Shown here: piece after piece, positions 3,308 to 22,794 of the stretch | Layout of the letters: each line of letters begins with the position of its first letter | Position numbering within the stretch: position 1 is the stretch's first letter | DNA from: Methylobacter sp. | Lineage (GTDB): Bacteria > Pseudomonadota > Gammaproteobacteria > Methylococcales > Methylomonadaceae | Assembly: GCA_041660285.1 (NCBI GenBank) | Contig: JBAZWN010000008.1 | Span: forward strand, 6,110 to 70,109 | Direction: 5' to 3' | Length of the DNA stretch: 64,000 nucleotides | Notes under the pieces: model-generated | What the model saw: only the letters and a program-made list of their open reading frames with translations | Database searches by the model: none | Told to the model about the DNA's origin: nothing | Made by a program: the position numbers and the translations under genes

Positions 3308-3744
3308 TGAAATTTCAACGCAAGAAAAGGGAAAATGTAGATATTACGTTGATCTCAATGATCGATGTGCTTTTTGTGCTGTTGTTGTTCTTCATGGTTT
3401 CTACAACCTTCAACCAACATACGGAAGTCAATATCAAGCTTCCCGAGGCAAACGGGGCGGATGCCGAGCAACATCCAAAAATGGTCACATTGACTATTGG
3501 TGCGGACGGCATTTATTATCTGAATGGTGATGACGGCTTGCCTCATAAGCTGGTTAATCAGAGCGTGGACGCGTTAAAGCAGGAATTGCGCAAGCTTGCA
3601 GAACATTCAGGGGAGATTCCCTTTATCATCAATGCCGACGGCAAAACGCCCCATCAGGCTGTGATTAAAGCATTAGAGGCTGCCAGTGATGCCGGCTTCA
3701 GCCATATCACTTTTGCGGCCCTGCATTCAAAGACCGAACAATGA
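3307..3744 (+). CDS. ExbD/TolR family protein
   Basis: MIDVLFVLLLFFMV transmembrane motif with conserved Asp; INADGKTPHQAV periplasmic motif; overlaps the ExbB-like stop. Confidence 0.92.
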   Translation: MKFQRKKRENVDITLISMIDVLFVLLLFFMVSTTFNQHTEVNIKLPEANGADAEQHPKMVTLTIGADGIYYLNGDDGLPHKLVNQSVDALKQELRKLAEHSGEIPFIINADGKTPHQAVIKALEAASDAGFSHITFAALHSKTEQ

Positions 3745-4739
3745 AAAAAACGCTGGCTCGATGGGCGCTGGATGTCTGGTATAAAGACCCGTTTATTGGC
3801 ACATGGCTGATGCCGCTGGGCTTTTTGTTTTCCGATTTTGTTAAATTCAGGAAATTCTTGTACCGCATCAAGGTGTTAAGAAAACACACCATGCCTGTTC
3901 CGGTTATCGTGGTGGGCAACATCACTGTGGGCGGCACAGGTAAAACGCCGTTGATTATCTACCTGGCTGGGCTTCTCAAGGATGCGGGCTTTAAGCCCGG
4001 CATTATCAGCAGAGGCTACGGAGGGCAAGCCGAATCATGGCCGCAATGGGTAGATGCAAACAGTATGGCGGCACAGGTAGGCGATGAGGCCTTGTTATTA
4101 GCCAGACAAACCGGCTGTCCTGTGGCGGTAGGCCCGTTGAGGGTTGAGGATGCACAGTTGTTGCTCAAGCAATCCGATTGCAATGTCATTTTGTCCGACG
4201 ATGGTTTGCAGCACTATGCATTGAACCGGGATATCGAGATCGCCGTCATTGACGGGGAAAGACGTTTTGGTAACGGCTACTGCCTGCCGGCAGGCCCTTT
4301 GCGCGAAACTATAGACAGATTGCAGAGCGTCGATTTTATCGTCGTTAACGGCGAAAAGTCAGAACCTAATGAGCTTTCCATGCAGATCAGCGGGGACACG
4401 GCAATTAATCTGGTCAGCGGAGAGCAAAAGTCATTGCAGGAGTTTAATGCCGCCGGATGTCACGCTTTGGCGGGCATAGGCAATCCTGACCGGTTTTTCA
4501 GGCTGCTTGAGTCTGCCGGTCTGACCTGCAAAACACACAGTTTCCCGGACCATTATCAATTTCAGCGCGGCGACATCGAATTTGGCGATGACGAACAGGT
4601 GTTAATGACCGAGAAAGATGCGGTAAAATGCACGGCGTTTGCGAGCAAGCAGCATTGGTATATTCCAGTAAAAGCCATTCCTGAACCGGTTTTTTCTGAA
4701 CAATTATTGAAATTATTACGAGAAAAAAACAATGGATAA
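3741..4739 (+). CDS. lpxK: Tetraacyldisaccharide 4'-kinase
   Basis: [14 protein letters not shown]-loop, SRGYG, DDGLQH, TEKDAVK motifs. Confidence 0.97.
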
Positions 4740-4923
4740 AAAATTACTCGATATTCTGGCTTGCCCTTTATGCAAAAGTTCGCTGATTTACGATAAAGCC
4801 AAACAGGAACTTATCTGCAAAGCCGACCATATCGCGTTTCCCATCCGCGATGATATTCCGGTAATGCTTGAAGATGAAGCTCGCGAATTAACTAATGACG
4901 AAATTGACGCATTATCCAAATGA
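4732..4923 (+). CDS. ycaR: Trm112 family protein
   Basis: [11 protein letters not shown]...[11 protein letters not shown] pattern; canonical position between lpxK and kdsB. Confidence 0.93.
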
Positions 4924-5690
4924 CCATGCGTTTTAAGGTAGTCATTCCTGCAAGATACGGTTCGACAAGATTGCCAGGCAAGCCCCTGCTGAACATTGCA
5001 GGCAAGCCGATGATTGCGTATGTCTGTGAGAGGGCTCAGGAAGCCGACGCCGAAGAAATTATCGTAGCGACAGATGATGACAGGATTTTTCAAACCGTCA
5101 GTGATCTGGGCATTAAAGCGGTGATGACGCGCCCGGACCATCAAAGCGGCACGGAAAGAATTGCCGAAGTAGCACAGCAATGCGGCTGGGATGGGGATGA
5201 AATCATCGTTAATCTGCAAGGCGATGAACCGCTTATTCCTTCGGCATATATTCGCGAAGCTGCGGCGGCATTAGCCGGACAGAGGCAAGCGGGCATAGCG
5301 ACACTGGCCGCTAAAATCGAAGACCATGAAGAGATTTTCAATCCAAACGCGGTAAAAGTTGTTTTGAATAATGCCGGTTACGCGCTTTATTTCAGTCGCG
5401 CTCCCATCCCATGGGAAAGAGATCGGTTTACTGCTGCAGGCGGCAAGCCTTCCGGGAAAATGCCTTATCTCAGGCACATCGGCATGTACGCTTATACGGT
5501 TGATTTTTTAAACCGCTACTGCCAGTGGGATGCTTCACCGCTCGAATCGGTTGAGTCCCTGGAGCAACTGAGAATATTGTGGCACGGTGAAGCTGTTCTG
5601 GTGAAAACCGTAGACAAAACCCCTGATGCCGGCGTTGATACCAAGGAAGACTTAATACGCGTGGAGCAGGCATTATACTTGGACCGCTAG
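4920..5690 (+). CDS. kdsB: 3-deoxy-manno-octulosonate cytidylyltransferase (housekeeping copy)
   Basis: [43 protein letters not shown] motifs. Confidence 0.97.
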
Positions 5691-5711
5691 CCTGCTGGCC
5701 ACTGTTATTAT

Positions 5712-5740
5712 TTGACATATATTATTAATAACAGTACCTT
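5712..5740 (+). promoter_or_regulatory. Sigma70-type promoter of alaC-hom-thrC
   Basis: TTGACA (5712-5717), 17-nt spacer, TACCTT (5735-5740), 41 nt before the alaC ATG. Confidence 0.65.
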
Positions 5741-5781
5741 AGAAAACATTTTTAAACTTTAACTCATACATTAAACTGTTA

Positions 5782-6966
5782 ATGGAACAATTTCATAGAA
5801 TAAGTCGCTTGCCTCCCTATGTTTTTAACATTGTTAATGAACTGAAAGCCAAGGCGCGCGCGGCAGGAGAAGATATTATCGATTTTGGCATGGGCAATCC
5901 GGATCAGCCCACGCCTGAGCATATCGTCAATAAAATGCTTGAGGCGGCAAAACGCCCCGATACCCATCGTTATTCGGTTTCCAAGGGTATACCCCGCTTA
6001 AGGAAAGCCATCTGCAACTGGTATAAAAACCGCTTCGATGTTGATCTGGATCCGGAAACCGAGGCCATTGTCACCATCGGCTCAAAAGAAGGTCTGGCGC
6101 ATTTGGCTCTGGCGACCTTGGGTCCCGGCGATGTGGTGCTGGTGCCGAACCCCGCTTATCCGATACATCCTTATGGCGTGGTGATTGCCGGCGCCGATCT
6201 GCGGCATGTACCGATGATCCCGGGCGGCGATTTCTTTGATGAGCTGAATAAAGCCATTGGCGATTCATGGCCCAAGCCGAAAATGCTGATTCTTAATTTC
6301 CCGGGCAATCCTACCAGCCAGTGCGTGGAGCTGGATTTTTTTGAAAAAATTGTCGCTATCGCAAAAGAGCATAAAATCTGGGTTGTGCAGGATATTGCTT
6401 ATGCGGACATCGTTTTTGACGGCTACAAAGCGCCGTCAATTCTTCAAGTTGAAGGCGCAAAAGACATAGCGGTAGAGTTTTTCTCGCTATCTAAAAGCTA
6501 CAACATGCCGGGCTGGCGTGTGGGCTTCATGTGCGGCAACAAATCGTTGGTTTCCGCCCTGGCTCGAATCAAGTCCTATCTGGATTACGGCACTTTCACG
6601 CCCATTCAAATCGCAGCGATTGCGGCCCTTGAAGGCCCGCAAGACTGCGTTGCAGAAATTGCCGAAATGTATGAAAAAAGACGCGATGTGCTGTGCGATG
6701 GCTTAAATGCCGCCGGATGGCCGGTTGAAAAACCCAAAGCGACCATGTTCGTTTGGGCAAAAATCCCGGATGCCTATCAAGCGATGGGGTCTCTTGAGTT
6801 CTCCAAAAAACTGCTGCTGGAGGCCAAGGTAGCGGTGGCGCCCGGTATCGGTTTTGGCCAGTATGGCGACGATCATGTCAGGTTTGGCCTGATTGAGAAT
6901 GAACACCGCACCCGCCAGGCGGTTCGCGGCATCCGCAATATGATGAAGAAAGACGGCGTTATATAA
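5782..6966 (+). CDS. alaC: PLP-dependent alanine transaminase (class I/II aminotransferase)
   Basis: [21 protein letters not shown] and [14 protein letters not shown] (PLP lysine) motifs. Confidence 0.9.
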
Positions 6967-7000: not shown

Positions 7001-8311
7001 TTGAAACCGGTAAAAGTGGGTGTTTTAGGTTTAGGCACTGTCGGCGGCGGTACTGTCAATGTATTGAAGCGAAATGCCGCGGAAATTGCGCGCAGGGCAG
7101 GCCGTGAAATCATTATCACCCGTGCCTCGGCAAAAGACTTAAACAAGCAGCGCATTTGCGATACGCAAGGCATCGCTTTGACGACTGATCCCTATGAAAT
7201 CATCAACGATCCGGAAATTGAAATCATCCTGGAATTAATTGGCGGCGCAGGGCCGGTCAAAGACATGGTGTTAAAAGCCATAGAAAACGGCAAGCATGTG
7301 GTTACCGCCAACAAGTCGCTCATCGCCTTGCATGGCAACGAGATTTTCGCAAAAGCCAGCGAAAAAGGCGTGATAGTCGCGTTTGAGGCCGCTGTCGCCG
7401 GCGGCATCCCCATTATCAAGGCGATACGCGAAGGCTTAAGCGGCAACCAGATCGAATGGGTGGCCGGTATCATTAACGGCACAGGCAATTTCATCCTGAC
7501 TGAAATGCGCGATAAAGGCCGTGATTTTTCCGACGTGTTAGCAGAAGCGCAAGCGTTGGGATATGCGGAAGCCGATCCTACTTTTGATGTCGAAGGCATA
7601 GATGCCGGCCACAAACTCACCATTCTGGCTTCCATTGCATTTGGCATCCCCTTGCAGTTCGACAAGGTTTTTACCGAGGGCATTACCAAAATCACCCGTG
7701 TCGATGTCGAGTACGCCGAACAGCTGGGTTACCGGATCAAACATTTGGGCATCGCTCGCAAAACACCGGAAGGCATTGAATTAAGAGTGCATCCGACACT
7801 GATTCCTGAACGCCGCCTTATTGCCAATGTGAACGGCGTAATGAATGCCGTTCTGGTTAAAGGCGATGCGGTAGGCCCTACGCTTTACTACGGCGCCGGG
7901 GCCGGTGCTGAACCTACAGCATCTTCCGTAGTCGCCGATGTGATCGATGTGGTCAGGGCGCTGACCAGCGATCCTGAAAACAGGGTGCCCCACTTAGCCT
8001 TTCAGGCCGACTCGTTGGCCGATATACCGGTATTGTCATCGGACCGGTTCAAGACCTCTTATTATTTGCGTCTTAATGCCGAAGACAAGCCGGGAGTTCT
8101 GGCTGAAGTCACAAGAATTCTCGCGGATCATCAAATCAGCATTGAAGCCATCATCCAGAAAGAGCCGCTGGAAAATGAAACATCGGTGCCGATTATTCTG
8201 TTGACTCAGATCACGCTTGAAAAAGAAATGAATGCGGCGATTGCCGAAATTGAAGCTTTAAAAACCGTTACCGGCAAGGTAAATCGCATCCGCCTGGAAA
8301 CTTTGGGATAA
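7001..8311 (+). CDS. hom: Homoserine dehydrogenase with C-terminal ACT domain
   Basis: GLGTVGGG, VVTANK, EAAVAGGIP, GIINGT, EADPTFDVEG motifs; TTG start. Confidence 0.97.
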   Translation: MKPVKVGVLGLGTVGGGTVNVLKRNAAEIARRAGREIIITRASAKDLNKQRICDTQGIALTTDPYEIINDPEIEIILELIGGAGPVKDMVLKAIENGKHVVTANKSLIALHGNEIFAKASEKGVIVAFEAAVAGGIPIIKAIREGLSGNQIEWVAGIINGTGNFILTEMRDKGRDFSDVLAEAQALGYAEADPTFDVEGIDAGHKLTILASIAFGIPLQFDKVFTEGITKITRVDVEYAEQLGYRIKHLGIARKTPEGIELRVHPTLIPERRLIANVNGVMNAVLVKGDAVGPTLYYGAGAGAEPTASSVVADVIDVVRALTSDPENRVPHLAFQADSLADIPVLSSDRFKTSYYLRLNAEDKPGVLAEVTRILADHQISIEAIIQKEPLENETSVPIILLTQITLEKEMNAAIAEIEALKTVTGKVNRIRLETLG

Positions 8312-9513: not shown

Positions 9514-10104
9514 ATGATGTATTTCGATAAGAGCAGAAGCTTGCTTGAATTTAAGAAGCCTACTGTAGCATCAAATAAAGGACATTCAAATGGAGTTGGA
9601 ATGTTGATTGTGCCCGTTAGTTTAATTCGGAGTTCCGAATTAAACGCCAACAACCTAAAGAAATGGAACAAGATGCCATCGGCGTATAGAAACGTTATTG
9701 CGTGGTACTTAAAAGGGGCGGGTGTACCAGTTAAGGACATAGCTACTTTTCTGTCGATCAGTAGTTCAAGAGCAAGCGCACTTATTACGAAGGTTCGCCG
9801 ACTTGTATATGTTCATTCAACCATACATCGATTAGATAAAGATTTTTATAAAGAAAGTGTTTCACCTGAAGTATTTAAAGCTCATTGTTTAAAACAGCAG
9901 TACAAAGAAATGATTGATGCTGAATATGTTCTTTCAATGTCGTCTTTATTTGGTATTCAGGAAGACCATTATGTTGTTAGTGAGGCATTGCGACTTGGAA
10001 AACAAGCCTATTTGGAATCAACTGAAAAGCTTGCCGGTGTTACGTGTGATTGTTTTGAGTGCAGTGTCGTTAATAATATGATTAACGAATATGTCAACTC
10101 GTAA
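9514..10104 (+). CDS. Hypothetical protein with probable helix-turn-helix
   Basis: 196-aa ORF filling the thrC-recJ gap, AT-richer than its neighbours, followed by a terminator; segment VPVKDIATFLSISSSRASALI has HTH spacing. An alternative start at 9601 has a GGAG upstream. Confidence 0.6.
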   Translation: MMYFDKSRSLLEFKKPTVASNKGHSNGVGMLIVPVSLIRSSELNANNLKKWNKMPSAYRNVIAWYLKGAGVPVKDIATFLSISSSRASALITKVRRLVYVHSTIHRLDKDFYKESVSPEVFKAHCLKQQYKEMIDAEYVLSMSSLFGIQEDHYVVSEALRLGKQAYLESTEKLAGVTCDCFECSVVNNMINEYVNS

Positions 10105-10136
10105 GATGGGTAACTTGTAACGCGTACGAATAATGT

Positions 10137-10161
10137 AAAGCCGACAAAAGTCGGCTTTTTT
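10137..10161 (+). terminator. Rho-independent terminator
   Basis: AAAGCCGAC-AAAA-GTCGGCTTT followed by a T run. Confidence 0.8.
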
Positions 10162-10173
10162 ATTGGAAACCCC

Positions 10174-11919
10174 ATGTATTATCAAGGCGTAAAGAAAACA
10201 ATAGTTGCTCGTCCCGCCGGGAAAAAACGCGCGTTTGCGGGAGAAATGCACCCCGTATTGGAGCGCATATTTCTGGCGCGGGGTTTAACGTCGGAAGCGG
10301 AACTGGACAGAACGCTGGCAAAACTGCCGTCACCGTGGCTGTTATCCGGCATGGAAGAGATGGTGGACCATTTGATCACTGCCATCCATTCACAGCAGAA
10401 AATCTGCATCGTCGCCGACTTTGATGCTGACGGTGCAACCAGTTGCGCCGTGGCTATCAAGGGTTTGCAACTGCTGGGGGCGGGGGATGTCACATTCGTC
10501 GTGCCAAACCGCTTTGAATACGGTTATGGACTGACGCCTGAAATCGTCGATCTGGTTAAACTGCAAAATCCCGACGTCGTCATTACCGTTGATAACGGCA
10601 TTTCAAGTATTGAAGGCGTAAAAGTAGCCAAAGAGCTGGGCATAAAAGTCCTGGTTACAGACCACCATTTGCCAGGCAATGAACTGCCAAGCGCCGATGC
10701 CATCGTAAACCCTAATCTGGCCGGCGATCAATTCCCCAGTGGCGCGCTTGCCGGCGTTGGCGTTATTTTCTATGTCCTAATGGCTTTAAGGAGTCGGCTG
10801 AGAGAGCAAAACTGGTTCGAGCAGCATCAGGTTCAAGAGCCCAATCTTGCCCAATTGCTGGATTATGTTGCACTGGGTACCGTCGCCGATGTGGTTGCGC
10901 TGGATCAAATCAACCGGATTCTGGTGCATCAGGGCTTGTTGAGAATACGCACAGGCCGGGCGCATCCCGGTATAAATGCGCTTATTGAAGTGTCAGGAAG
11001 AAAGTCCGAATCCATATTCGCATCGGATTTGGGTTTTGCGCTGGGGCCAAGGCTTAATGCGGCGGGACGCATGGATGATATGTCGTTAGGAATTCAATGC
11101 CTGCTGACAGAAGATCCTGCCCACGCGAAAGAAATAGCACTGCAACTGGATGACCTGAACAATGACCGGCGGGAGATTGAAGGGCAAATGAAAAACGAGG
11201 CCATGGCCTTGTTGAGCGAGATGAAAACGCTTGATGAACACCATTTGCCTGCGGGTGTTTGCCTGTTTGATGCCAACTGGCATCAGGGGGTTGTAGGGAT
11301 TTTAGCATCGCGCATAAAAGATCAGCTGCACCGCCCCGTTATTGCCTTTGCACCCGTCGGAAAAGATGAAATAAAAGGTTCTGCACGTTCAATCACTGGC
11401 GTCCATATTCGCGACGTACTGGCTGATATTGCCGCAGCGCACCCTAAATTGCTGAGTAAATTTGGCGGCCATGCGATGGCGGCGGGGCTAAGTTTGAAGA
11501 TGCACGATTATCCGCCGTTCGCATTGGCTTTTGATGAGATGGTTAGAAAACGTTTGGCGACTGTCGATCTGGAACAGAAAATTTATTCCGATGGTGAGTT
11601 GACGGAAACGGAAATGACTATAGAATTCGCTGATTTGTTACAAAATGCAGCTACCTGGGGGCATGAATTTCCGGAACCTGTTTTTGACGGGGTGTTTGAC
11701 GTTATTCAATCGCGCATTGTCGGGCAGCGGCATCTTAAACTGGTGCTGAGAAAACCAAGCGGCGATTTACTCATAGACGCTATTGCTTTTTATGTCGACC
11801 AGCCGGAGAACTGGTTAGGCCTGCGGCATATTAAGGCGGCTTACAAACTGGACATCAATGAATTCAGGGGGAATCGCAGCGTTCAGTTTATAGTGCAGTA
11901 TCTGGAAAAAATCACATAA
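10174..11919 (+). CDS. recJ: Single-stranded-DNA-specific exonuclease RecJ
   Basis: DFDADG, TVDNG, TDHH (DHH), GTVADV, PRLNAAGR, GGHAMAAG (DHHA1) motifs. Confidence 0.98.
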   Translation: MYYQGVKKTIVARPAGKKRAFAGEMHPVLERIFLARGLTSEAELDRTLAKLPSPWLLSGMEEMVDHLITAIHSQQKICIVADFDADGATSCAVAIKGLQLLGAGDVTFVVPNRFEYGYGLTPEIVDLVKLQNPDVVITVDNGISSIEGVKVAKELGIKVLVTDHHLPGNELPSADAIVNPNLAGDQFPSGALAGVGVIFYVLMALRSRLREQNWFEQHQVQEPNLAQLLDYVALGTVADVVALDQINRILVHQGLLRIRTGRAHPGINALIEVSGRKSESIFASDLGFALGPRLNAAGRMDDMSLGIQCLLTEDPAHAKEIALQLDDLNNDRREIEGQMKNEAMALLSEMKTLDEHHLPAGVCLFDANWHQGVVGILASRIKDQLHRPVIAFAPVGKDEIKGSARSITGVHIRDVLADIAAAHPKLLSKFGGHAMAAGLSLKMHDYPPFALAFDEMVRKRLATVDLEQKIYSDGELTETEMTIEFADLLQNAATWGHEFPEPVFDGVFDVIQSRIVGQRHLKLVLRKPSGDLLIDAIAFYVDQPENWLGLRHIKAAYKLDINEFRGNRSVQFIVQYLEKIT

Positions 11920-13599: not shown

Positions 13600-13602
13600 T
13601 TC

Positions 13603-14139
13603 TTATTTCTCTGTATCGGGGATGTATTTATATAAAAAAATCATTTGCAGCAGGATGAAAATAACCATCAAGCCCGGTACGCCAAATGTTTTGAAGGTAA
13701 CCCAGTCGTCGGTGTTGTAATTGTACATCACGTAAAGATTGATAAAGCCTACGCTGATAAAGAAGCTACCCCACATGACGTTCAACCGTTTCCAAACATG
13801 TGCCGGTAAAGTTAAGCTGCCGGACATCATTCTTTCAACGAATGGTTTTTTGCCAATAAACTGGCTGCCCAAAAAGGCTGCGCCAAACAGCCATTCTATG
13901 ATGGACAGCTTCCATTTGATGAATTGTTCATCCTGGAAATAGAGGGTTGCACCACCCATTACCAGAATCAGCCCCAATGTAATCCATTGCATGATTTCGA
14001 CTTTACGGTGTCTAAACCAGGTGTAAGCGACCTGAATAACAGTGGCTGCGATAACAACAGCCGTGGCGACATAAATATCGTAAAGCTTAAACGCGATAAA
14101 AAATAAAATAATCGGAAAAAATTCGAAAAGCTGTTTCAT
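13603..14139 (-). CDS. yciB: Septation protein A / inner membrane-spanning protein YciB (IspZ)
   Basis: FIKWK, W..LN..W..FF and WVTFKTFG motifs; yciB-yciI-bolA-ppiC synteny. Confidence 0.92.
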   Translation of the reverse strand: MKQLFEFFPIILFFIAFKLYDIYVATAVVIAATVIQVAYTWFRHRKVEIMQWITLGLILVMGGATLYFQDEQFIKWKLSIIEWLFGAAFLGSQFIGKKPFVERMMSGSLTLPAHVWKRLNVMWGSFFISVGFINLYVMYNYNTDDWVTFKTFGVPGLMVIFILLQMIFLYKYIPDTEK

Positions 14140-14159
14140 AGTAACCGGAAGTGGAGTGG

Positions 14160-14507
14160 TCAGGCGTAAAGATCAATGCCTGTAATCAATTGAGTGCGTT
14201 GATCCTGCAGAGGCGAGTTGAGTTCCTGGCTGTAAGCCGATAGAGCCTTTGAAGTCTTGGCATCAATTGGTTTGATAAGATTAACCTGCTTTGTTGAATC
14301 AAGTCCCAAGCCGGCATTATCTAATGTCTTTTTTATCTCGTCAGGCGTGGAAGAGGGCAAAAGCGCCTGATTCAGCTGTTTGTTTTTGGAGTCTTTCGAG
14401 ACTAACAACTCATCTTTTTCGCTTTTACTTTGTGCGCCATTATTCTTGCCAACTTGCTGGTTAAGGCCAATGGGCGAAAAAGCTAACGATGAACTGTGAA
14501 TTTTCAT
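14160..14507 (-). CDS. Hypothetical protein, possibly motility-associated
   Basis: 115-aa ORF in the same orientation as yciB; ends GIDLYA; sigma28-like sequence upstream. Confidence 0.6.
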   Translation of the reverse strand: MKIHSSSLAFSPIGLNQQVGKNNGAQSKSEKDELLVSKDSKNKQLNQALLPSSTPDEIKKTLDNAGLGLDSTKQVNLIKPIDAKTSKALSAYSQELNSPLQDQRTQLITGIDLYA

Positions 14508-14591
14508 GTATGAAGCAAAAAACTATCGATGCGTCATTGTAAAATCTTTAATAAGGAATGTACATGCTTGAATAGCTGTTTCTGCTAGAAT

Positions 14592-14915
14592 ATGGCTTAT
14601 TTTTGGAGCAAATCTGTGGACAAAAGCACACAAACAGAATTAGAGGCGGCTGCATTCAGACATTTGGTCAGCCATTTGCAAAAACATACTGAAGTCCAGA
14701 ACATCGACCTGATGATTCTGGCGGATTTTTGCAGAAACTGTCTGGCGAAATGGTATGCGGCGGCGGCAGTAGAGCGGGGTGTGGAAATGGATTACGAGCA
14801 GGCCAGGGAAGTGGTGTATGGCATGCCTTACAAGGAATGGAAAGATAAATACCAAACCGAAGCGACGGCAGAGCAACTGGCCGCCTATGACCGCAAACAA
14901 CAAGCAAAAGCATGA
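14592..14915 (+). CDS. DUF1244 family protein
   Basis: ELEAAAFRHLV, VQNIDLM, FCRNCL, YGMPY..WK pattern typical of DUF1244; true start may be a few codons downstream. Confidence 0.85.
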   Translation: MAYFWSKSVDKSTQTELEAAAFRHLVSHLQKHTEVQNIDLMILADFCRNCLAKWYAAAAVERGVEMDYEQAREVVYGMPYKEWKDKYQTEATAEQLAAYDRKQQAKA

Positions 14916-15649
14916 TTACAACTAAATCGCAATACGACGCCATGTTTTCAGGCGTCATTGGACAAGACTATGACACGCTCAATTTGATCTGCCCTTTGGC
15001 GACCGAAATGAGCCGGCTGGTGGGCATTGCCGTCAGTGACTATGCTGCAAAAACTACCGGCAATCTCAGCGTTGTAGAACTGGGCGGCGGCACCGGTATC
15101 ACCACCTTATCACTATTAACGGCATCGGATAAACTCAGTATTTTAAGCATCGACAACGAGCCGGTCATGCAGGAACAGGCCAAAAAACACCTGAGCAAAT
15201 GGATAACCGAAGGCAAGCTGACTTTTAGCGGCGATGATGCGTTGACTGCATTAAAAAATATTGCGGCTGATAGCGTTGACATAGTGGCGTCCGCCTATAC
15301 CTTGCACAATTTTCTCGATTCCTACCGCAAGGAAGTGATGCAGCAGATTTTCAGGATTTTAAAACCCGGTGGCCAATTCATTAACGGCGACCGTTATGGT
15401 TTGGATGACATTTCCAAGCATACGCGAACCATACAGGAAGAAGTCAGCGGTTATTTCAAGGTGCTGACCAGGATTAACAAGCTGGACGTGCTGGAGCACT
15501 GGATAGTCCATTTATTTAATGATGAATCAGAAAACCACGTCATGCGTGAAACGGCAGCGCTTGATCAGCTGCGTGACGCCGGCTTTTCAGAAATCAAGCT
15601 TGCCCACAGGCTTGAAGTTAATGCGCTGGTGACTGCGGTAAAACCATAG
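14912..15649 (+). CDS. Class I SAM-dependent methyltransferase
   Basis: VVELGGGTG motif I, LKPGGQFI motif. Confidence 0.88.
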   Translation: MITTKSQYDAMFSGVIGQDYDTLNLICPLATEMSRLVGIAVSDYAAKTTGNLSVVELGGGTGITTLSLLTASDKLSILSIDNEPVMQEQAKKHLSKWITEGKLTFSGDDALTALKNIAADSVDIVASAYTLHNFLDSYRKEVMQQIFRILKPGGQFINGDRYGLDDISKHTRTIQEEVSGYFKVLTRINKLDVLEHWIVHLFNDESENHVMRETAALDQLRDAGFSEIKLAHRLEVNALVTAVKP

Positions 15650-15656
15650 AACGCTT

Positions 15657-16898
15657 ATGAATTCCCTATTTAAAATGCTCTTCCTGCTTATTCTGGCAAT
15701 AGCACTCAGCGGCTGCGCGAGTTTAGGCAAAGGCGTCGCCGAAGCTTTTCTGGAAAAACAGCAATCGGCCGACACGCGGCTTTGCGAAATATGGGGAAAA
15801 CCATTCCAAGGACTCTCTCCGTTCCTGAACAACCACAAAGGCAAAATGAAGGTGCTGATGGTGCATGGGGTAGGTGACCATCTGCCGGGCTACTCCACGC
15901 AATTTGTAGAAAAACTGGCTAAGGAACTTGATTTGCCGGTGATGTCGGCGCAGTACAAAAACATCACGCTGACCAGCCGGCTTGATTCAAGCAAAAACCT
16001 GGGCAACCTGAGAATCAACCGGTTGCTGAGCAAAGACAGAAGCAGGGAGCTGATGTTTTATGAATTAACCTGGTCTGTCATTACCGCCAAGCAAAAAGAA
16101 GTGCTTGTCTATGACAATTCAGGGGAATACTCCTTCCGCAGAGCGGAAGTAAACGACTTGCTGAAGAAATTCTCCAATGATACCGGCCCCGATCCCATCA
16201 TCTATCTGGGAGAGAGCAGGGAGGACATACTGGTTTCGTTCGGCCAGTCATTTTGCTGGATGATCAAAAGCGGTTGGGACGGCCTTCCTGACGACGTAAA
16301 GCAAGCCTGTTCCTTTAACGACGATGGCGCGGCAGCGAATTTGCCTGTCGATCAGTATGCTTTTGTTTCGCACAGCCTGGGCAGCCGCATCATTATCGAC
16401 GGCATGCAGCGCATTGCTGCTTTGCTGGGCGAGCGCGATGCCGATTTTGGCGAGGCTTTAAAGACCAAGGAAATCCCCATTTACATGATGTCCAATCAAC
16501 TGCCCATGCTGCAGTTGGGGCGTAAACTGCCCGATGTAAGCAACCAAAAAGCCGCATATTGCCAGCCGGGTGGCGAAAAATATAACCAGCGTATGCTGGC
16601 TAGGACGCCCATCATCGCGTTTAGCGATCCCAACGATCTTTTAAGTTACGCAATTCCTCACGGCTTTGCAGAAAAGTATCTGGATTCAAGGCTTTGCATA
16701 GATGTCACTAACATCAACATCAATGTAGCAACTATTTTTGACGCTTTCGGCCTGGGTAAAATGGCCAACCCGATCAATGCACACGTAGGTTACGATACCG
16801 ATGACAGGGTGGTTGCGCTTATCGCCAAAGGCATAGGTAATAAGAATACATCCGGGATTGTTAATGACCGCTGCCGCTGGACTGAGACAATAGACTGA
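15657..16898 (+). CDS. Lipoprotein with probable alpha/beta-hydrolase fold
   Basis: Lipobox LSGC; VHGVG, SHSLG nucleophile elbow, DLLSY and AHVGY as candidate Asp/His. Confidence 0.7.
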   Translation: MNSLFKMLFLLILAIALSGCASLGKGVAEAFLEKQQSADTRLCEIWGKPFQGLSPFLNNHKGKMKVLMVHGVGDHLPGYSTQFVEKLAKELDLPVMSAQYKNITLTSRLDSSKNLGNLRINRLLSKDRSRELMFYELTWSVITAKQKEVLVYDNSGEYSFRRAEVNDLLKKFSNDTGPDPIIYLGESREDILVSFGQSFCWMIKSGWDGLPDDVKQACSFNDDGAAANLPVDQYAFVSHSLGSRIIIDGMQRIAALLGERDADFGEALKTKEIPIYMMSNQLPMLQLGRKLPDVSNQKAAYCQPGGEKYNQRMLARTPIIAFSDPNDLLSYAIPHGFAEKYLDSRLCIDVTNININVATIFDAFGLGKMANPINAHVGYDTDDRVVALIAKGIGNKNTSGIVNDRCRWTETID

Positions 16899-17185
16899 AG
16901 GCTAAAGTAATCTGGAGCGCGCGCGAGCTCTTTTCCAGCTCTTATATTTCTCCGATATCTTAACCAGCGTGTTTAAATAAAATAAGGTTATAAATAAAAC
17001 CAGCAACGTTATCAGCGATACCAGTTTTAAGAACTTCTGGAATAACCAGTTCATTATTTCGACCTTTGAGTGCATGGATTCTTTCATGCGCTCAATTATA
17101 GCGAAGTTACGCAGGAAATGTACGTAACAATAGAGCAGAGCGTGCTGCGGTAAAAAACAGGCCGCATATACCAACTCGTAATATT

Positions 17186-17213
17186 ATTTAACATAATATA
17201 CATTATGCGAAGT
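17186..17213 (-). other. dif site (XerC/XerD chromosome dimer resolution site)
   Basis: Minus strand reads ACTTCGCATAA-TGTATA-TTATGTTAAAT: the 6-bp core and XerD arm are identical to E. coli dif (GGTGCGCATAA TGTATA TTATGTTAAAT); gene orientation flips around it. Confidence 0.95.
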
Positions 17214-17265
17214 GTAGGCATAACCCTTGCATTAGTCTGGCTTTTACTTGCAAGGAGCCAAAACC

Positions 17266-17727
17266 ATGACACAGCTAACCACCACGCTTAACAGCAGCTT
17301 TAAAGAATGGCGACAAACCGCCCAATATTCAATTGAAGATTGTCAGCGTATATTCTGCGTTACTAAAAGAACTATAAACAATTGGGAATCAGAAAGAATA
17401 AAGCCGCCCCGTGCGGTTTTTATTTGCCTAATGCTTTTTGCTGGGCGTCTCGATCACCTGGGCAAACAATGGCGAGGATTCAGAATCACGCCGGAATACA
17501 TAGAATCGCCTGAAGGTGATTTTGTGCATTGTCAGGAAATCAGAGCCTTAAGATACGCATTTCAGGCGTTAGATATAAAGCGAGACAAAATACTCAGAAC
17601 AAGTGAAAATAAACCGGAAAACGTAATATTTCTGCCAATCACAAAAAAGAAAACTAATACACACACCATAAAAAAGCGTTCAAAAATAACCGAATCAAGA
17701 CCAAGGAATAACCGGAGAAAGACATGA
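17266..17727 (+). CDS. Phage-type HTH regulator with DUF3653-like C-terminal domain
   Basis: AAGGAG RBS before ATG 17266; N-terminal XRE-like HTH (FCVTKRTINNWE); QWRGFRI...IESPEG segment typical of DUF3653 proteins. Confidence 0.75.
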   Translation: MTQLTTTLNSSFKEWRQTAQYSIEDCQRIFCVTKRTINNWESERIKPPRAVFICLMLFAGRLDHLGKQWRGFRITPEYIESPEGDFVHCQEIRALRYAFQALDIKRDKILRTSENKPENVIFLPITKKKTNTHTIKKRSKITESRPRNNRRKT

Positions 17728-18257
17728 ATTTAAAGCTAGAGATATTGATTATTATAGCCTTAATAACAACCTCAGCCTTTATCAAGGCAATAATAGAAAG
17801 CAACAATAACAAGAAAATATGGCCGTTTTACGCTAAAAAACTACTCTCACAACCTGAACAAATACTCTATTTCCGGTTACTAGAAGCTTTGCCAAACCAT
17901 ATAATTCTTGCACAAGTTCAGCTTTCTCAACTACTAGGCATTAAAAAAGGCAACAATCATCAATCATGGTTGAATCGAATCAGCAGAATGAGTGTTGATT
18001 TTGTAGTGTGCAATAAAGATTCGAGTATCGTAGCTGCCATCGAACTTGATGACGCAACACATTTAAGAAAACATCGTAAAGCAGCCGATGCCAAAAAAGA
18101 TAAGGCGCTAAATTCAGCCAACGTTCAAATAATACGGTGGCATGTAAAGTCAATACCTGACATCGTTGCCATCCAAACAAGTATTTTACCCCCTGCTCTT
18201 TCCGCCGAATCTAACGCAAAAATTCTACAAAATAGCGAAATATTAGCAAAATCCTAA
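17724..18257 (+). CDS. DUF2726 family protein
   Basis: N-terminal TM anchor; LLSQPEQ..Y..L, AQVQLSQLL, VDFVVC, AIELDDATH (PD-D/ExK-like) pattern. Confidence 0.88.
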   Translation: MNLKLEILIIIALITTSAFIKAIIESNNNKKIWPFYAKKLLSQPEQILYFRLLEALPNHIILAQVQLSQLLGIKKGNNHQSWLNRISRMSVDFVVCNKDSSIVAAIELDDATHLRKHRKAADAKKDKALNSANVQIIRWHVKSIPDIVAIQTSILPPALSAESNAKILQNSEILAKS

Positions 18258-18293
18258 ATGATTGTTTTTAAATAATAAAGTTAAAACTTTTGT

Positions 18294-18326
18294 ACAAGAG
18301 TCCACTGGTTATAGTATGTGGACTCT
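18294..18326 (-). other. Hairpin resembling the filamentous-phage plus-strand replication origin, copy 1
   Basis: 9-bp stem AGAGTCCAC/GTGGACTCT; minus strand AGAGTCCACATACTATAACCAGTGGACTCTTGT aligns at 27/33 positions with f1 ori GGAGTCCACGTTCTTTAATAGTGGACTCTTGT (f1 sequence recalled from cloning vectors). Confidence 0.65.
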
Positions 18327-18349
18327 ATGAGATCAGAAAAATTGAAGGG

Positions 18350-19120
18350 TTAGACCATGCAAGATACAATTTTCACATTTTTCAGATTGTTAGTGAAATT
18401 AACATCTGTAAACGGAGAAAATTTGAAGGCTTGAACTCCTGGAGTTCCTGCGGCATCAATATAGGAAATTGAAAGCTTTACTTCATACTCAGCTTGGGGT
18501 GTTTTGTACCGCCAATTCAATCTTTTGTCTTGTTCGTGAATCCATGAGAACACCTTTGCGAGGTTGGAGTACTCAATCTCAGGCTCATAAATGAAAACCA
18601 CATTAGTTGCTGTATTTCCGAGATTCTTGATAGATGAATAATAGTCTGCCTTGCCACCGCTGAGCGTCACGTTAACGTCATGAAAAACAAACAAAGGGCG
18701 TGCATCTCTGACTTGGCGGTCGCGTTCGAAACGGATGGTTTCGAGCTCTGCATCCATTTGCTTTCGTGAAACCTCAACCAGATTTCTTTGCTGCTCAACA
18801 GAGTTATGCAACTCTTCGGCCTGTAAATTGAGTGCGTGAGTATTCTGCCGTAATTCAATGCCCTGTTGGAAAAAGCCGAGAATTAACCAGAAAGTAGCAA
18901 GTGGACCAAATACGCCAGCCAAGAAATCGCCAATATTGTTAGGCGACAAATTCTTGATATCGCTGAGGCGATCATCGAAAAACCACCATAGCGCCCCCAC
19001 ATAAACGGCTGTGCAAACAATTGAAATCGACTCATAAATGACTAATAAATGATTATTAAAAGTAAAAGTATAAACATTGGCTGCTTCGCTGCCAATTAAT
19101 AAGCGATATGAAACTTTCAA
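18350..19120 (-). CDS. Hypothetical membrane protein with coiled coil
   Basis: Two TM segments around NNIGDFLAGVFGPLATFWLILGFFQQG, then a Gln/Glu-rich helix; start codon uncertain. Confidence 0.75.
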   Translation of the reverse strand: MKVSYRLLIGSEAANVYTFTFNNHLLVIYESISIVCTAVYVGALWWFFDDRLSDIKNLSPNNIGDFLAGVFGPLATFWLILGFFQQGIELRQNTHALNLQAEELHNSVEQQRNLVEVSRKQMDAELETIRFERDRQVRDARPLFVFHDVNVTLSGGKADYYSSIKNLGNTATNVVFIYEPEIEYSNLAKVFSWIHEQDKRLNWRYKTPQAEYEVKLSISYIDAAGTPGVQAFKFSPFTDVNFTNNLKNVKIVSCMV

Positions 19121-19517
19121 GCAGTTGCTTAGGGTGTGGATGGTGGCGAATTATGACGGATACTAGCTGTTTTCCTGATAAATGGCATACTATTACCCTC
19201 CCACGCTAAAGACTGAGCTCGTAGCGCAACCCCTCAAAGGGCTACAAAGGTGGAAACAGCCTTCAGTTTTTTCCACTAATCGGCGTGGCTTTGCTATCCG
19301 CTAAAAATACGCATGCTTTTATTATCACAATAAGATAGAAATTAGTTTTGAAAGATTCTAACGCTCTTTTAGTATAGAATTGGCAAAATTTCGACGCCGT
19401 TTCTCAGTATTGCACAGGGCTTAAACGCCTCCAACCATGCACTTAATGCTGCGAGAAATCAGGACAGATTAAAGAGTTTGTCCTGATTAATCTCAAATGA
19501 TGTAAATAATTGTAAGA

Positions 19518-19871
19518 TTACTTGGGTTTTGCCAGCTTTTCATGTGTTGCCGCTGCTTTTTCGTGTTCTTTGGCTAGCGCATCATGATGCTCAGCCATTC
19601 TTTCGTAATGCCTCATTAACTCTTTGTGTCCAGCTTTTTCATACTCTAGCGCTACCGATCTAAAATGCTCTGCCATAGCCTTGTTATGCTCTGCGTATTG
19701 CATTTCAAGTTTGGCTGACTCAGAATGCTCCTCAGGTGAGGTTGCAGGTGCAGTGATATTGTTAGTGGGATGCTCAGGAGCAGGTGAGATTTCCGCTAAC
19801 AAGGGCGCAGAAACAACACTCATACAAGCAGTCAAAACCAAACCAAGATAAGTATTTTTGTTCATAATCAT
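19518..19871 (-). CDS. Secreted His/Met-rich helical protein, candidate periplasmic metal-binding protein
   Basis: Signal peptide ending APLLA; heptad-spaced His (AEHNKAM-AEHFRSV; AEHHDAL-AKEHEKA-AATHEKL). Confidence 0.75.
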   Translation of the reverse strand: MIMNKNTYLGLVLTACMSVVSAPLLAEISPAPEHPTNNITAPATSPEEHSESAKLEMQYAEHNKAMAEHFRSVALEYEKAGHKELMRHYERMAEHHDALAKEHEKAAATHEKLAKPK

Positions 19872-20038
19872 GCTCTCCAGAGAAGTAATAAATTATTAAA
19901 CCAATTATTTTGTGTTGAGTCTGTATCGTTAAACCACCACTCAATAACATTCTCAACATCTAACACTATAGTTGTACTGCTACAAAAAAGCCAATTGAAC
20001 AGGAGTTGGCCGGAAGCTGACATTCGCAGCCAACAGTG

Positions 20039-20368
20039 TTAAGGGTTAGCTTGATGACTCGAGGTCTTCTCTCCAGAGTACTTCGGAACGTAAATCCGAT
20101 ATAGATCATAAGGCACCACAACTGTGTCGAACACAGCCGAGAAAGGTAGGTCGGCAATAAGGATGGTTGCCATTAGCCCCTTGATCCAACCTGGGGTCGA
20201 ACTCTTATCGCTAAATAGCTCGCTAGTATCTTTTACGTCCTGCTGAATACCGGGATAGACGGTCCACTCCTTATCAGAGGTTTCAGTCCTAGCGCGTATG
20301 CTTGAACAACCTAATATAAGAAAGCTCATAAAAACAACGACAACCCATCTTCCAATATCTGACTTCAT
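20039..20368 (-). CDS. YceK/YidQ family lipoprotein
   Basis: Lipobox ILGCSS; YPG then DLPFSAVFDTVVVPYD, the family signature. Confidence 0.85.
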   Translation of the reverse strand: MKSDIGRWVVVVFMSFLILGCSSIRARTETSDKEWTVYPGIQQDVKDTSELFSDKSSTPGWIKGLMATILIADLPFSAVFDTVVVPYDLYRIYVPKYSGEKTSSHQANP

Positions 20369-20452
20369 AATTTTTTCCTTTAAATCAATGAGGGAATGAA
20401 GCTGGTTACTTTTTTAAGAAATTGATCGCATCCGACGACAAAGTCAAACTGA

Positions 20453-20594
20453 TAGAAGCTTTACCGAACCATATAATTCTTGCACAAGAAGTTCAGCCGA
20501 TGTTCGAATAATACGATGGCATGTAAAATCAATCCCAGACATAGGCACCATCCAAACGAATATTATGCCCACTACTCGCCCCATCGAATCTAAC
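20453..20594 (+). pseudogene. Internally deleted fragment of a second DUF2726 gene
   Basis: 20453-20497 matches 17881-17922 and 20492-20594 matches 18113-18215, joined at a shared TTCAGC; 5' part absent. Confidence 0.85.
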
Positions 20595-20649
20595 TCTGAG
20601 GCTTAGAAAGACTTAAGTTATTGTCTTAATATTTATCAAGCTTCTGAGT

Positions 20650-20681
20650 AAGAGTCCACTGGTTTATAGTATGTGGACTCT
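20650..20681 (-). other. Origin-like hairpin, copy 2 (direct repeat of 18296-18326)
   Basis: AAGAGTCCACTGGTTTATAGTATGTGGACTCT, identical to copy 1 except for one extra T in the loop. Confidence 0.65.
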
Positions 20682-20707
20682 CCTGCCCCCTAGTACGAGT
20701 CTTTAAC

Positions 20708-21235
20708 TTAAAGGCCGTTGATCGCAGTCGGCGAACAGGGATCTAGGAAAGGTGGCGGCGTGTTCATATTGTCTCTGACAAGCAGCACGCTCTCGCCGGA
20801 ACTGCTGTTGTAGTAGAGAGGGAAATTCGCCTGCTGATCCTTCTTCGGGTCGGCTGAGGTATCGATGATGATCTTACCCGTATTGTTGGCGACCGATCCT
20901 TTCGGCACGGTCTTTGGTTGGGCCAATTGCAGAAGATAGTCGAATGACTGGTTGTTGGCGAAGTTCTGGTTGCCTGAATAGACCTTGGCGGGCGTGAAGT
21001 TGAAATCCTTAGCTCCAGGCTGGGTGTTGTCGATGGAGTTGATTTTGTAGATTACGAATAACCCATTGCTGGAAGAGCCGGTGGTGTGTGGCGAGCCCGT
21101 CGGATCACTATCGAAGAGATAGCACGTTGCAGATTCGTCATAGTGAACGGTGACGGTGTCGCTACAAGCTACCAGGCCAAGCGCCGTGGAGACCGCGATC
21201 GCGCCAAATGAAATGAATTTGCTGTATGTTTTCAT
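20708..21235 (-). CDS. Hypothetical lipoprotein
   Basis: AGGAG RBS upstream of ATG 21235; lipobox LVAC; beta-rich mature part; visibly GC-richer than its flanks. Confidence 0.75.
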   Translation of the reverse strand: MKTYSKFISFGAIAVSTALGLVACSDTVTVHYDESATCYLFDSDPTGSPHTTGSSSNGLFVIYKINSIDNTQPGAKDFNFTPAKVYSGNQNFANNQSFDYLLQLAQPKTVPKGSVANNTGKIIIDTSADPKKDQQANFPLYYNSSSGESVLLVRDNMNTPPPFLDPCSPTAINGL

Positions 21236-21608
21236 GGTAAGTCCTCTCCTAAACGTACTCAAATTATGTCTAACCATTGATTATCACCGCACAACTAAGT
21301 TGCAACTCACTATAGCCGTTAATTATCCAATGTCAAGCACAAAACCGCCTACTCCGTTGGATGATGATCACTGCATTGCCTATTTACAAGCATCATCTAT
21401 AACTTACCTTATGTTCATCGCATTGCACGGTCTTTGTCCATTTTTTAGCAGCAGGACGCTCGGGAGTAACCGGCGCAGTACTTTCCATCTTGGACACTTC
21501 ATACAGTCCCATTTTATACCTCAGCACTTTGCCAACTAAAACGCAAGCATACATTTTCTTGGGACTCTGATTATTAGGCTGTTATAGTAGCTTAGCCTCT
21601 AGATGATT

Positions 21609-21636
21609 GGCAGTTTGCTACGCGAAACAGCCCTAC
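21609..21636 (-). repeat. Possible single GTAG-type REP
   Basis: Minus strand GTAG-GGCTGTTTCGC-GTA-GCAAACTGCC: GTAG tetranucleotide followed by an imperfect hairpin. Confidence 0.35.
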
Positions 21637-21654
21637 GGATTATTTGATAAAAAC

Positions 21655-22794
21655 ATGACTAAACACCCTGAATTCCCATTAACTGACGAACTGATTTACC
21701 TTAACCATGCCGCTGTAGCGCCGTGGCCTAAAAGAACCGGCGCGGCTGTAATTAAGTTTGCCGAGCAAAATACCCGCTACGGCTCTCATTTTTATCTGGA
21801 CTGGCTGAACAAGGAAGCTGAACTGCGCACGCAGTTGCAGGCTTTGTTGAATACGCCCTCCTCTGATGATATTGCCTTGGTTAAAAACACTTCCGAGGCG
21901 CTGTCTTTTGTCGCCTACGGTTTGGACTGGCAGTCCGGCGATAACATTGTTTCCAGTAATGAGGAATTCCCTTCCAACAGGCTGCCGTGGGAATCATTAG
22001 CCAGCCAGGGCGTGGAATTCCGGCAGGCTGATCTGCATGGCGCGGATTCGCCTGAGGAAACCTTGTTTGCCCTGGTGGACAGCAACACGCGCTTGTTGAC
22101 CATCAGTTCCATACAATTTGCTTCCGGTCTGCGCATGGATCTGAAAAAAATAGGTGCATTCTGCAAGCAGCGCGGTATTTTGTTTTGCATAGATGCTATC
22201 CAGAGTATTGGCGCGGTGAAGTTTGACGTGCAGGCTTGCCAGGCGGATTTCGTCATGGCTGACGGTCATAAATGGATGTTCGGCCCTGAAGGTCTGGGCG
22301 TTTTCTACACCACGCCGGAAGCCAGGGACAAGTTAAGGCTGACACAATTTGGCTGGCACATGATGAAAGACACCCATAATTATGAAAACCAGCCGTGGGA
22401 AGCTCATCCCTCTGCCCGCCGTTTTGAATGCGGCAGCCCCAATATGCTGGGAATTCATGCGCTTTCCGCCAGTTTGTCTTTATTACTGGAAACTGGGATG
22501 GATGTTGTCGAGTCGCTGGTGCTTGAGAAATCAGACTACTTGAAGGCTGAAATTGATAAAAACGGGCAGTTGATTCTGCTGTCGCCACGACATGCGCCGC
22601 TTAAGTCCGGTATTGTCGTATTCAAACACCGGACTGTTGCCAATGAGGTGTTATATAAATACCTGCAGGACAACGGTGTGGTTTGCGCCATGCGCGGCGG
22701 CGGCATACGGTTTTCACCGCATTTTTATAATACAAACGAAGAAATTGATAAGGCGCTGGGGTTGATTGCTGCTGCTATACCCCGCTCCCGATAG
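21655..22794 (+). CDS. Class V aminotransferase / cysteine desulfurase-like PLP enzyme
   Basis: IYLNHAAVAP, DAIQS, ADGHKWMFGPEG (PLP lysine), IRFSPHFYN; ATG 21655 preferred over TTG 21607; stop lies inside a downstream repeat. Confidence 0.9.
   Translation: MTKHPEFPLTDELIYLNHAAVAPWPKRTGAAVIKFAEQNTRYGSHFYLDWLNKEAELRTQLQALLNTPSSDDIALVKNTSEALSFVAYGLDWQSGDNIVSSNEEFPSNRLPWESLASQGVEFRQADLHGADSPEETLFALVDSNTRLLTISSIQFASGLRMDLKKIGAFCKQRGILFCIDAIQSIGAVKFDVQACQADFVMADGHKWMFGPEGLGVFYTTPEARDKLRLTQFGWHMMKDTHNYENQPWEAHPSARRFECGSPNMLGIHALSASLSLLLETGMDVVESLVLEKSDYLKAEIDKNGQLILLSPRHAPLKSGIVVFKHRTVANEVLYKYLQDNGVVCAMRGGGIRFSPHFYNTNEEIDKALGLIAAAIPRSR

Follow-up and report, generated by a model that had tools for sequence, protein, structure and literature searches.

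In a Methylobacter sp. genome (GenBank assembly GCA_041660285.1), a low-GC island located beside the chromosomal dif site contains two directly repeated hairpins that are homologous to the viral-strand origin of the Ff phages (f1, M13, and fd). The analysis covered a 64,000-nucleotide stretch of contig JBAZWN010000008.1, and this whole stretch is referred to here as the window. The segment from position 17214 to approximately 20700 of the window is probably a decayed stack of two independently acquired elements of the filamentous-phage type, termed E1 and E2, whose orphan origins flank moron cargo genes. As part of this best-supported reading, the stacked elements have lost, or never had, the set of genes from Rep to Zot.

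Ff-type origin hairpins of the island

The two hairpins, which are designated hairpins 1 and 2 and listed together with the other features of the island in Table 1, lie on the same strand in direct orientation and differ only by a single extra loop T in hairpin 2 (plus strand). Each has a 9-bp stem with a computed folding energy of approximately -8 kcal/mol (z of approximately -2.7). In 100 shuffled versions of the window, the chance expectation of the hairpin pattern was 0. The assembly (2.9 Mb, 99% complete) contains two matches to the pattern, both in this island, and no third match.

When the minus-strand sequence of the hairpin was compared with 50,697 phage records using BLAST, the best match was to positions 5766-5803 of f1, M13, and fd, a segment annotated in the fd record as the 'origin of viral strand synthesis'. 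The E-value of this match is not significant when taken by itself, and the identification is based on the exact alignment of the key parts, i.e. the hairpin and the Ff origin share an 8-bp stem (GAGTCCAC/GTGGACTC), the loop sequence CT.TAA around the gpII nick, and the 3' sequence CTCTTGT. The exact pattern derived from the Ff alignment was found in 33 contigs of IMG/VR, 69 of genomes, and 38 of metagenomes. Matches with a 12-nt loop are present in Methylobacter, Methylomonas, and other gammaproteobacteria, as well as in phage-sized contigs of 5-10 kb. The exact 29-nt hairpin of Ff was also detected in assemblies of Streptomyces, Bacillus, Mycobacterium, and others, where it lies on contigs of very small size (L040, L044, L045, L049-L051, L060, L063, and others); many of the 29-nt genome matches in unrelated phyla are probably due to contamination of public genomes with cloning vectors containing the f1 origin. 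Two other assignments of the hairpins were considered and rejected, namely a REP/RAYT-type repeat family, because the genome contains two copies only, and an attC or pdif-type recombination site, because the hairpin is unlike dif and matches the Ff origin.

In every annotated relative (L009, L098, L105, L101, and L081), the hairpin is located on the strand that carries the phage genes. These genes encode a Phage_CRI Rep, Zot, DUF5455, and a weakly G5P-like protein in L009; a Phage_CRI Rep, Zot, and coat B protein in L098 (Methylomonas rivi); G5P, pIII-like, and pVI-like proteins and Zot in L101 (Aeromonas); and Zot and the pIV secretin in L081 (Oceanisphaera). A Phage_CRI Rep gene is present on the same replicon as the hairpin in the relatives L009, L098, and L105, whereas none was found in the window. 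In approximately seven loci, a rep gene with a start reading MIDxLVLR begins about 40 nt downstream of the hairpin, and an identical hairpin adjoins rep in a Methylobacter tundripaludum prophage (L058/L014). The 7,396-nt contig of L098 also contains XerC-arm-like motifs (CATTATGCG) on opposite strands near its ends (positions 1-13 and approximately 7313-7340). If this contig is circular, the motifs are inverted and about 80 nt apart, an arrangement reminiscent of the folded single-stranded DNA (ssDNA) attP of CTXphi.

Across 26 family members, the nick hairpin shows no variation. In 13 relatives, it is followed directly on the 3' side by a second hairpin, which occupies the place of the gpII-binding repeat of Ff (alignment of loci L006-L105, columns 33-47). 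Compensatory changes were identified in five of the six pairs of the second hairpin, in which 98.7% of the cells pair, whereas the nick hairpin never varies. Judged from these sequences, the combination of an invariant nick site and an adjoining variable specificity element is the signature of an origin of rolling-circle replication (RCR), and the second hairpin likely sets Rep specificity. The identity of hairpins 1 and 2 as Ff-type (+) origin hairpins is settled by homology, and nicking at these sites is predicted.

Hairpin 1 is the better-preserved origin. Its viral strand is the minus strand, the alignment to fd places the predicted nick in the loop at CTAT/AACC, and its 3' flank (TTGTACAAAAGTTT) matches that of the complete phages L009 and L098. 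In hairpin 2, the extra base adjoins the predicted nick, and 6 of the 16 positions of the 3' flank differ from those of hairpin 1. The 13-nt loop of hairpin 2 is unique among the 102 + 38 loci, which were collected using a search pattern that permitted a loop of this length. Neither flank appears to form a second (Rep-binding) hairpin. The flank of hairpin 1 fits the L009/L098 subgroup, which itself lacks a Rep-binding repeat, and the flank of hairpin 2 fits neither subgroup well.

Gene content and surroundings of dif

The dif site differs at three positions from dif of Escherichia coli, with 0 such sites expected by chance, and an identical 28-mer is present at the syntenic place in the Methylobacter loci L105 and L123. 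The island is located on the XerC-arm side of dif. Its GC content is 0.33-0.46, compared with approximately 0.50 in the core, and the low-GC region begins at dif and stops at approximately 20700, just past hairpin 2. No second dif-like site was found in positions 16800-21700 when up to 9 mismatches in 28 positions were allowed, nor was a XerC arm with spacer found when up to 4 mismatches in 17 positions were allowed. On the other side of dif, between a 413-aa core gene and the XerD arm, a low-GC open reading frame (ORF) of 90 aa with a transmembrane (TM)-like segment is present (positions 16902-17174); a shorter, unrelated spacer is found in its place in the syntenic locus L105.

The first gene of the island starts 52 nt from the XerC arm of dif and encodes a XafT-like protein. 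This protein matches the NCBIfam family NF040522 (VC1465_fam; E = 5.4e-11, positions 1-90 of 111) below the curated cut-off and the Pfam family DUF3653 (E = 4.4e-4) below the gathering threshold, and it contains the WRGFRI and TPE motifs. Its homologs, which share 55-75% identity, adjoin dif in Methylobacter prophages. XafT of TLCphi is the founding member of the VC1465/DUF3653 Xer activation family, and many proteobacteria have DUF3653 genes clustered beside dif (PMC6744903). A DUF3653 protein encoded by Xanthomonas phages instead binds the packaging hairpin (bioRxiv 10.1101/2024.03.19.585677). The XafT-like protein is a candidate for either role, Xer activation or packaging-hairpin binding, both of which are compatible with its sequence.

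The XafT-like gene is translationally coupled to a DUF2726 gene, the product of which has an N-terminal TM helix and a PD-(D/E)XK nuclease-like domain. In total, 851 homologs of this protein were identified, and the best among the matches listed are about 70% identical. The homologs are found in varied islands containing restriction-modification (RM), Thoeris, or Fic genes and lacking the hairpin. A fixed linkage between DUF2726 and the hairpin was rejected, as eight loci contain DUF2726 homologs at 65-73% identity without a hairpin; DUF2726 behaves as cargo. Membrane-anchored DUF2726 proteins are unusually conserved across beta- and gammaproteobacteria, where they are encoded beside type III RM, Fic, and Thoeris genes (L111-L119), and they may be mobile defence or exclusion nucleases. 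Single-sequence and profile scans of IMG/VR found no relatives of the DUF2726, XafT-like, or 256-aa membrane proteins of the island, a result that is uninformative.

The repeat in which the hairpins are embedded is longer than the hairpins themselves, since each copy is preceded by the 3' part of a DUF2726 gene and a homologous spacer (repeats D1-D3). The DUF2726 sequence that accompanies hairpin 2 is a decayed fragment sharing 78% (D1) and 94% (D2) identity with the intact gene. It shows synonymous changes in the conserved core and has the family-consensus R at a position where the intact copy has Q. These substitutions show that the two copies are diverged alleles, which would have separated as functional genes before their arrival in this genome, and they point to two integrations of related elements. 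Although the flanks share only about 75-80% of their sequence, the hairpins are identical; this reflects the invariance of the nick hairpin throughout the family and not a recent duplication.

In the history that we infer for the island, including the order of acquisition, the deletions, and the present inactivity of the elements, both elements would have been integrated at dif by the host Xer recombinases as integrative mobile elements exploiting Xer (IMEXs) of the TLCphi/XafT kind. Each would have brought a DUF2726 gene, a short spacer, and a (+) origin nick hairpin, with moron-type cargo immediately preceding the origin on the minus strand, which is the viral one. New IMEXs would enter at the regenerated dif, leaving the older element farther from it. 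The younger element would be E1, which adjoins dif and still has its XafT-like gene in intact form, together with DUF2726, origin 1, and the three cargo genes. Of the older E2, origin 2 and a fragment of a gene would be left, perhaps along with a single gene for a lipoprotein. The Xer junction between the elements, the Rep-to-Zot modules, and the XafT gene of E2 would be gone or, in part, never have been present, and the 5' part of the E2 DUF2726 gene would have been lost. The hairpins would have been constrained in sequence while the elements were active and would now be kept passively near dif.

Table 1. Features of the dif-linked island (positions in the window)
Feature	Position	Strand	Description
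Chromosomal dif	17186-17213	-	Minus strand ACTTCGCATAA-TGTATA-TTATGTTAAAT (XerC arm, spacer, XerD arm)
XafT-like gene, 153 aa	17266-17727	+	Helix-turn-helix (HTH) + DUF3653; NCBIfam/Pfam matches; candidate Xer activation factor of E1
DUF2726 gene, 177 aa	17724-18257	+	Pfam PF10881, E = 8.9e-22
Hairpin 1	18297-18326	-	AGAGTCCAC-N12-GTGGACTCT; predicted Ff-type (+) origin nick hairpin of E1
Membrane protein gene, 256 aa	18350-19120	-	phrog_9267, E = 3.8e-36; cargo just upstream of origin 1
Non-coding spacer, 397 nt	19121-19517		One terminator-like inverted repeat (I20) at 19450-19495
Secreted His-rich repeat protein gene, 117 aa	19518-19871	-	Cargo; signal peptide in translation
DUF1375/YceK-YidQ-type lipoprotein gene, 109 aa	20039-20368	-	Cargo; Pfam PF07119, E = 1e-13; NCBIfam YceK/YidQ
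Decayed second DUF2726 allele	~20453-20606	+	5'-truncated, ~196-bp internal deletion; direct repeats D1, D2
Hairpin 2	20651-20681	-	AGAGTCCAC-N13-GTGGACTCT; predicted origin nick hairpin of E2; 13-nt loop, diverged 3' flank
Lipoprotein gene, 175 aa	20708-21235	-	End 26 nt from hairpin 2

Among the cargo genes, the 256-aa membrane protein has no Pfam, PADLOC, or NCBIfam match, and the 117-aa His-rich protein has a weak Asr-like match (E = 1.3e-3). The 397-nt spacer shows no unusual ssDNA fold (z = -0.87), and neither a packaging-signal-like nor a minus-origin-like structure was seen in it. No Rfam family was identified in the spacer, and the island contains a single weak, sub-threshold small RNA match (E = 0.18) over dif and the start of the XafT-like gene. 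PADLOC assigned no defence family to any island gene, and neither Rep nor Zot is encoded within the window. The 175-aa lipoprotein has 19 homologs in all, including a 70%-identical protein encoded in an ordinary chromosomal context in Dyella (Xanthomonadales), a pattern that suggests recent horizontal acquisition. The GC content of its gene (approximately 0.50-0.52) is core-like, in contrast to that of the island, and the gene may be E2 cargo or an unrelated acquired gene.

Much of this arrangement had been described in an earlier, sequence-only reading of the same DNA. Our analysis confirmed the two near-identical hairpins at the positions given for them, their origin-like character (a match to the annotated viral-strand origin of fd/f1/M13 and conservation in inoviruses with a Phage_CRI Rep), the anchoring of the island at dif, the three intact minus-strand genes and the truncated DUF2726 copy between the hairpins, and the location of cargo genes just upstream of an origin on the viral strand. 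The short gaps that it noted between gene ends and hairpins are real, but the distances from stop codon to hairpin are 23 and 26 nt and not 24 and 27 nt. The 175-aa gene, which had been counted as a fourth cargo gene, does end beside hairpin 2, but its assignment as cargo is uncertain.

The left flank of the island is syntenic with two loci in metagenome-assembled genomes of Methylobacter, L105 (415-aa protein 90% identical) and L128 (methyltransferase 82% identical; Methylobacter sp. GCA_036561025.1), and the three syntenic dif regions have three different contents. In L128, dif is followed by a plus-strand XafT-like gene (62% identical), a plus-strand 95-aa gene, a 1-kb intergenic region, two minus-strand cargo genes, and genes for Zot, pVI-like and pIII-like proteins, and a Phage_CRI Rep. 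The L128 prophage and the window thus share the left flank and the order of dif, XafT-like gene, small plus-strand gene, spacer, and minus-strand cargo, whereas the L128 prophage keeps the genes from Zot to Rep, lacks DUF2726, and has another origin sequence without the GAGTCCAC hairpin. In L105 (positions 3620-5625, syntenic with positions 13600-17213 of the window), the hairpin is 550 nt from dif and is followed by an 88-aa gene and a gene for a Phage_CRI Rep; this locus has no virion genes and resembles a reduced, RS1/TLC-like element. The island of the window is also found, without any change, in an independent contig from a metagenome (L107).

Seven other genomes have the hairpin 0.4-1.1 kb from dif, in the same orientation. 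Phage structural genes lie directly upstream of the hairpin in L081 (Zot and pIV) and L101 (pIII/pVI/G5P and Zot). In L095 (positions 1-1200; Aeromonas sp. 164P) and L073 (positions 4290-5720; Zobellella aerophila), only non-phage genes (rplT-infC-thrS and a HAD hydrolase gene, respectively) are found upstream of the hairpin, which is 0.75-0.95 kb from dif, and a second Xer site was not seen by eye. These two modules are either recurrent origin-to-dif relics or minimal satellites. The hairpin-dif linkage in other genomes therefore suggests that the dif-proximal prophage end carries the origin and tends to outlast the rest, plausibly as deletions cannot extend into dif. In another Methylobacter sp. 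locus (L123, positions 9911-10462), a XafT-like gene is present on the XerC-arm side of the identical dif, and the XerD-arm side is occupied by a complete inovirus that encodes a Rep of the Phage_GPA type along with a C5 methylase and a nuclease of the Mrr type; therefore, IMEXs occupy both sides of one dif. These data indicate that XafT-type IMEXs populate the dif region of Methylobacter and that origin-proximal relics persist beside dif in several genera.

Alternative explanations for the tandem origins

Several observations weigh against the interpretation of the island as a stack of two relics. All E1 genes are intact ORFs, and the block consisting of the XafT-like gene, DUF2726, the hairpin, and the 256-aa gene is kept together in a locus from another metagenome (L130), in which the DUF2726 protein is 92% identical; E1 is therefore recent or under selection, and not plain junk. 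For both elements to descend from full phages, precisely the Rep-to-Zot region must have been lost twice in separate events, and no full phage with DUF2726 beside this hairpin was found in the IMG/VR scans. In addition, the recurrence of Rep-less origin-to-dif modules in other genera (L095 and L073) could mean that a real class of minimal satellites exists. If the two-relic interpretation is correct, the finding is an ordinary one.

The broadest alternative, which we regard as rather unlikely, is that Rep-less and coat-less mini-elements composed of a phage origin, a Xer activation factor, and cargo form a real class of dif-integrating satellites that are replicated and packaged wholly in trans. 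The island would then be a trapped tandem pair, from which the 2.35-kb unit could still be released by a superinfecting Methylobacter inovirus. If this were true, gene-free or Rep-free satellites of filamentous phages would represent a new route for cargo genes into the terminus region.

The sequence-only reading had proposed a natural phagemid, in which a Rep supplied in trans nicks hairpin 2, the minus strand is displaced up to hairpin 1, and a cargo-only circle of 2,355 nt is released and packaged. Both hairpins do have the nick structure that never varies in this family, and they are directly oriented on the gene-bearing strand; within the same bacterial genus, there are also phages that have the identical hairpin and a Phage_CRI Rep (L058/L014 and L105). 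The underlying process is also established, as ssDNA circles of CTXphi are produced by RCR between the origins of adjacent prophages (PMC4439123). However, the proposal is unlikely to hold. The circle would contain neither a dif-like site nor XafT, and the product could therefore not integrate. The initiating hairpin 2 has a loop insertion that is absent from approximately 140 other loci, together with the diverged 3' flank, whereas the better-preserved hairpin 1 is located downstream, and replication from it would pass through dif into the chromosome. The lack of packaging-signal-like and minus-origin-like structures in the spacer, of Rep and Zot in the window, and of a third hairpin in the genome also argues against it.

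Two checks suggested with the proposal gave negative results. Variation in hairpin-delimited cassettes was not observed, as an internal tandem pair occurs in no other locus among approximately 140 related loci, and the three double matches (L033, L145, and L168) represent the repeated ends of circular contigs. A search of the JGI metagenome contigs for the exact sequence of the predicted circle junction found no match, which is a weak test, as the organism may be missing from this collection. The idea of a new type of origin-punctuated cargo array is not upheld by an inter-origin unit that lacks a Xer site and XafT and has no counterpart arrays elsewhere. What had appeared to be a repeated unit consists of DUF2726-origin modules that are diverged alleles, and L128 shows that the layout is that of the dif end of an ordinary complete prophage. 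A superinfecting phage might release the 2,355-nt unit from origin to origin by accident.

It is also distinctly unlikely that E1 as a whole (attP, XafT, DUF2726, origin, and cargo; approximately 3.2 kb) is a Rep-less minimal satellite IMEX that was replicated and packaged by a helper, integrated by XerCD and XafT, and trapped by deletion of its distal Xer site. The intact XafT-like gene and cargo, the origin flank like that of complete phages, and the conservation of E1 in a second lineage are consistent with such an element. Reduced elements are present at the same dif within the genus (L105 with Rep, the 88-aa gene, hairpin, and dif), and origin-to-dif modules without phage genes upstream are found in Aeromonas and Zobellella. 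Nevertheless, a copy bounded by two Xer sites was not found in any locus, the intact relative L128 presents the layout as the end of a full prophage, and a free form is not known, DUF2726 being absent from the IMG/VR inoviruses.

A host-side function of the hairpins, either as bidirectional terminators between convergent genes or as decoy origins in the chromosome by which the Rep of an incoming phage is titrated, is very improbable. Each hairpin does lie between convergent genes (DUF2726 rightward and a cargo gene leftward), and cloned f1 origins interfere with helper phage in Ff. Against these points, a 9-bp stem of approximately -8 kcal/mol with a 12-13-nt loop and no T-run after it on either strand makes a poor intrinsic terminator, and the conservation is accounted for by the match in sequence to phage origins, with no need for a host function. 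A nicked chromosomal origin would moreover be hazardous rather than protective, as double-strand breaks arise at nicked origins (PMC4439123). Finally, an in-situ duplication of the DUF2726-hairpin segment followed by decay, which would account for the colinear direct repeats (gene 3' part, spacer, and hairpin), is extremely unlikely, given that the longer repeat D1 is only 78% identical in the gene and that the synonymous core changes and the consensus residue in the pseudogene point to selected divergence before arrival.

Comparison with known systems

The closest parallels to the island are found among filamentous phages and their satellites. TLCphi, a satellite filamentous phage of Vibrio cholerae that is also an IMEX (PMC6744903), is likewise integrated at dif with a XafT-type HTH-DUF3653 gene directly beside dif, lacks virion genes, and belongs to the world of Phage_CRI-type replicons. 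It differs from the island in having its own Rep (Cri) and two bounding Xer sites, neither of which is present here, and the XafT match of the island is below the curated cut-offs. In CTXphi/RS1 arrays (PMC4439123), two direct (+) origins are also present in a dif-linked array, and cargo occupies the slot immediately before the origin on the viral strand, as ctxAB does. CTX units contain rstA, which belongs to another Rep family, and an attP-forming junction, whereas the inter-origin unit of the island contains neither.

Ff miniphages and laboratory phagemids resemble the inter-origin segment in that they are origin-bearing DNAs without phage genes that depend fully on a helper. Those molecules carry a packaging signal and a complete origin, whereas no packaging signal is identifiable in the segment, which shows no sign of circulation.

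Compared with the Ff origin itself, the loop is longer (12-13 nt vs 11 nt in Ff), the copies in the window are located in a methanotroph chromosome with no rep gene nearby, and a second hairpin does not appear to form in the flank of either copy. On the other hand, the 8-bp stem, CT.TAA in the loop, and CTCTTGT on the 3' side are identical, the phages related through this hairpin encode the same Rep family (Pfam Phage_CRI/G2P), and many of them have the covarying second hairpin where the binding repeat of Ff is located. Inoviruses of methanotrophs and of other gammaproteobacteria have kept the nick hairpin of Ff with its sequence nearly unchanged.

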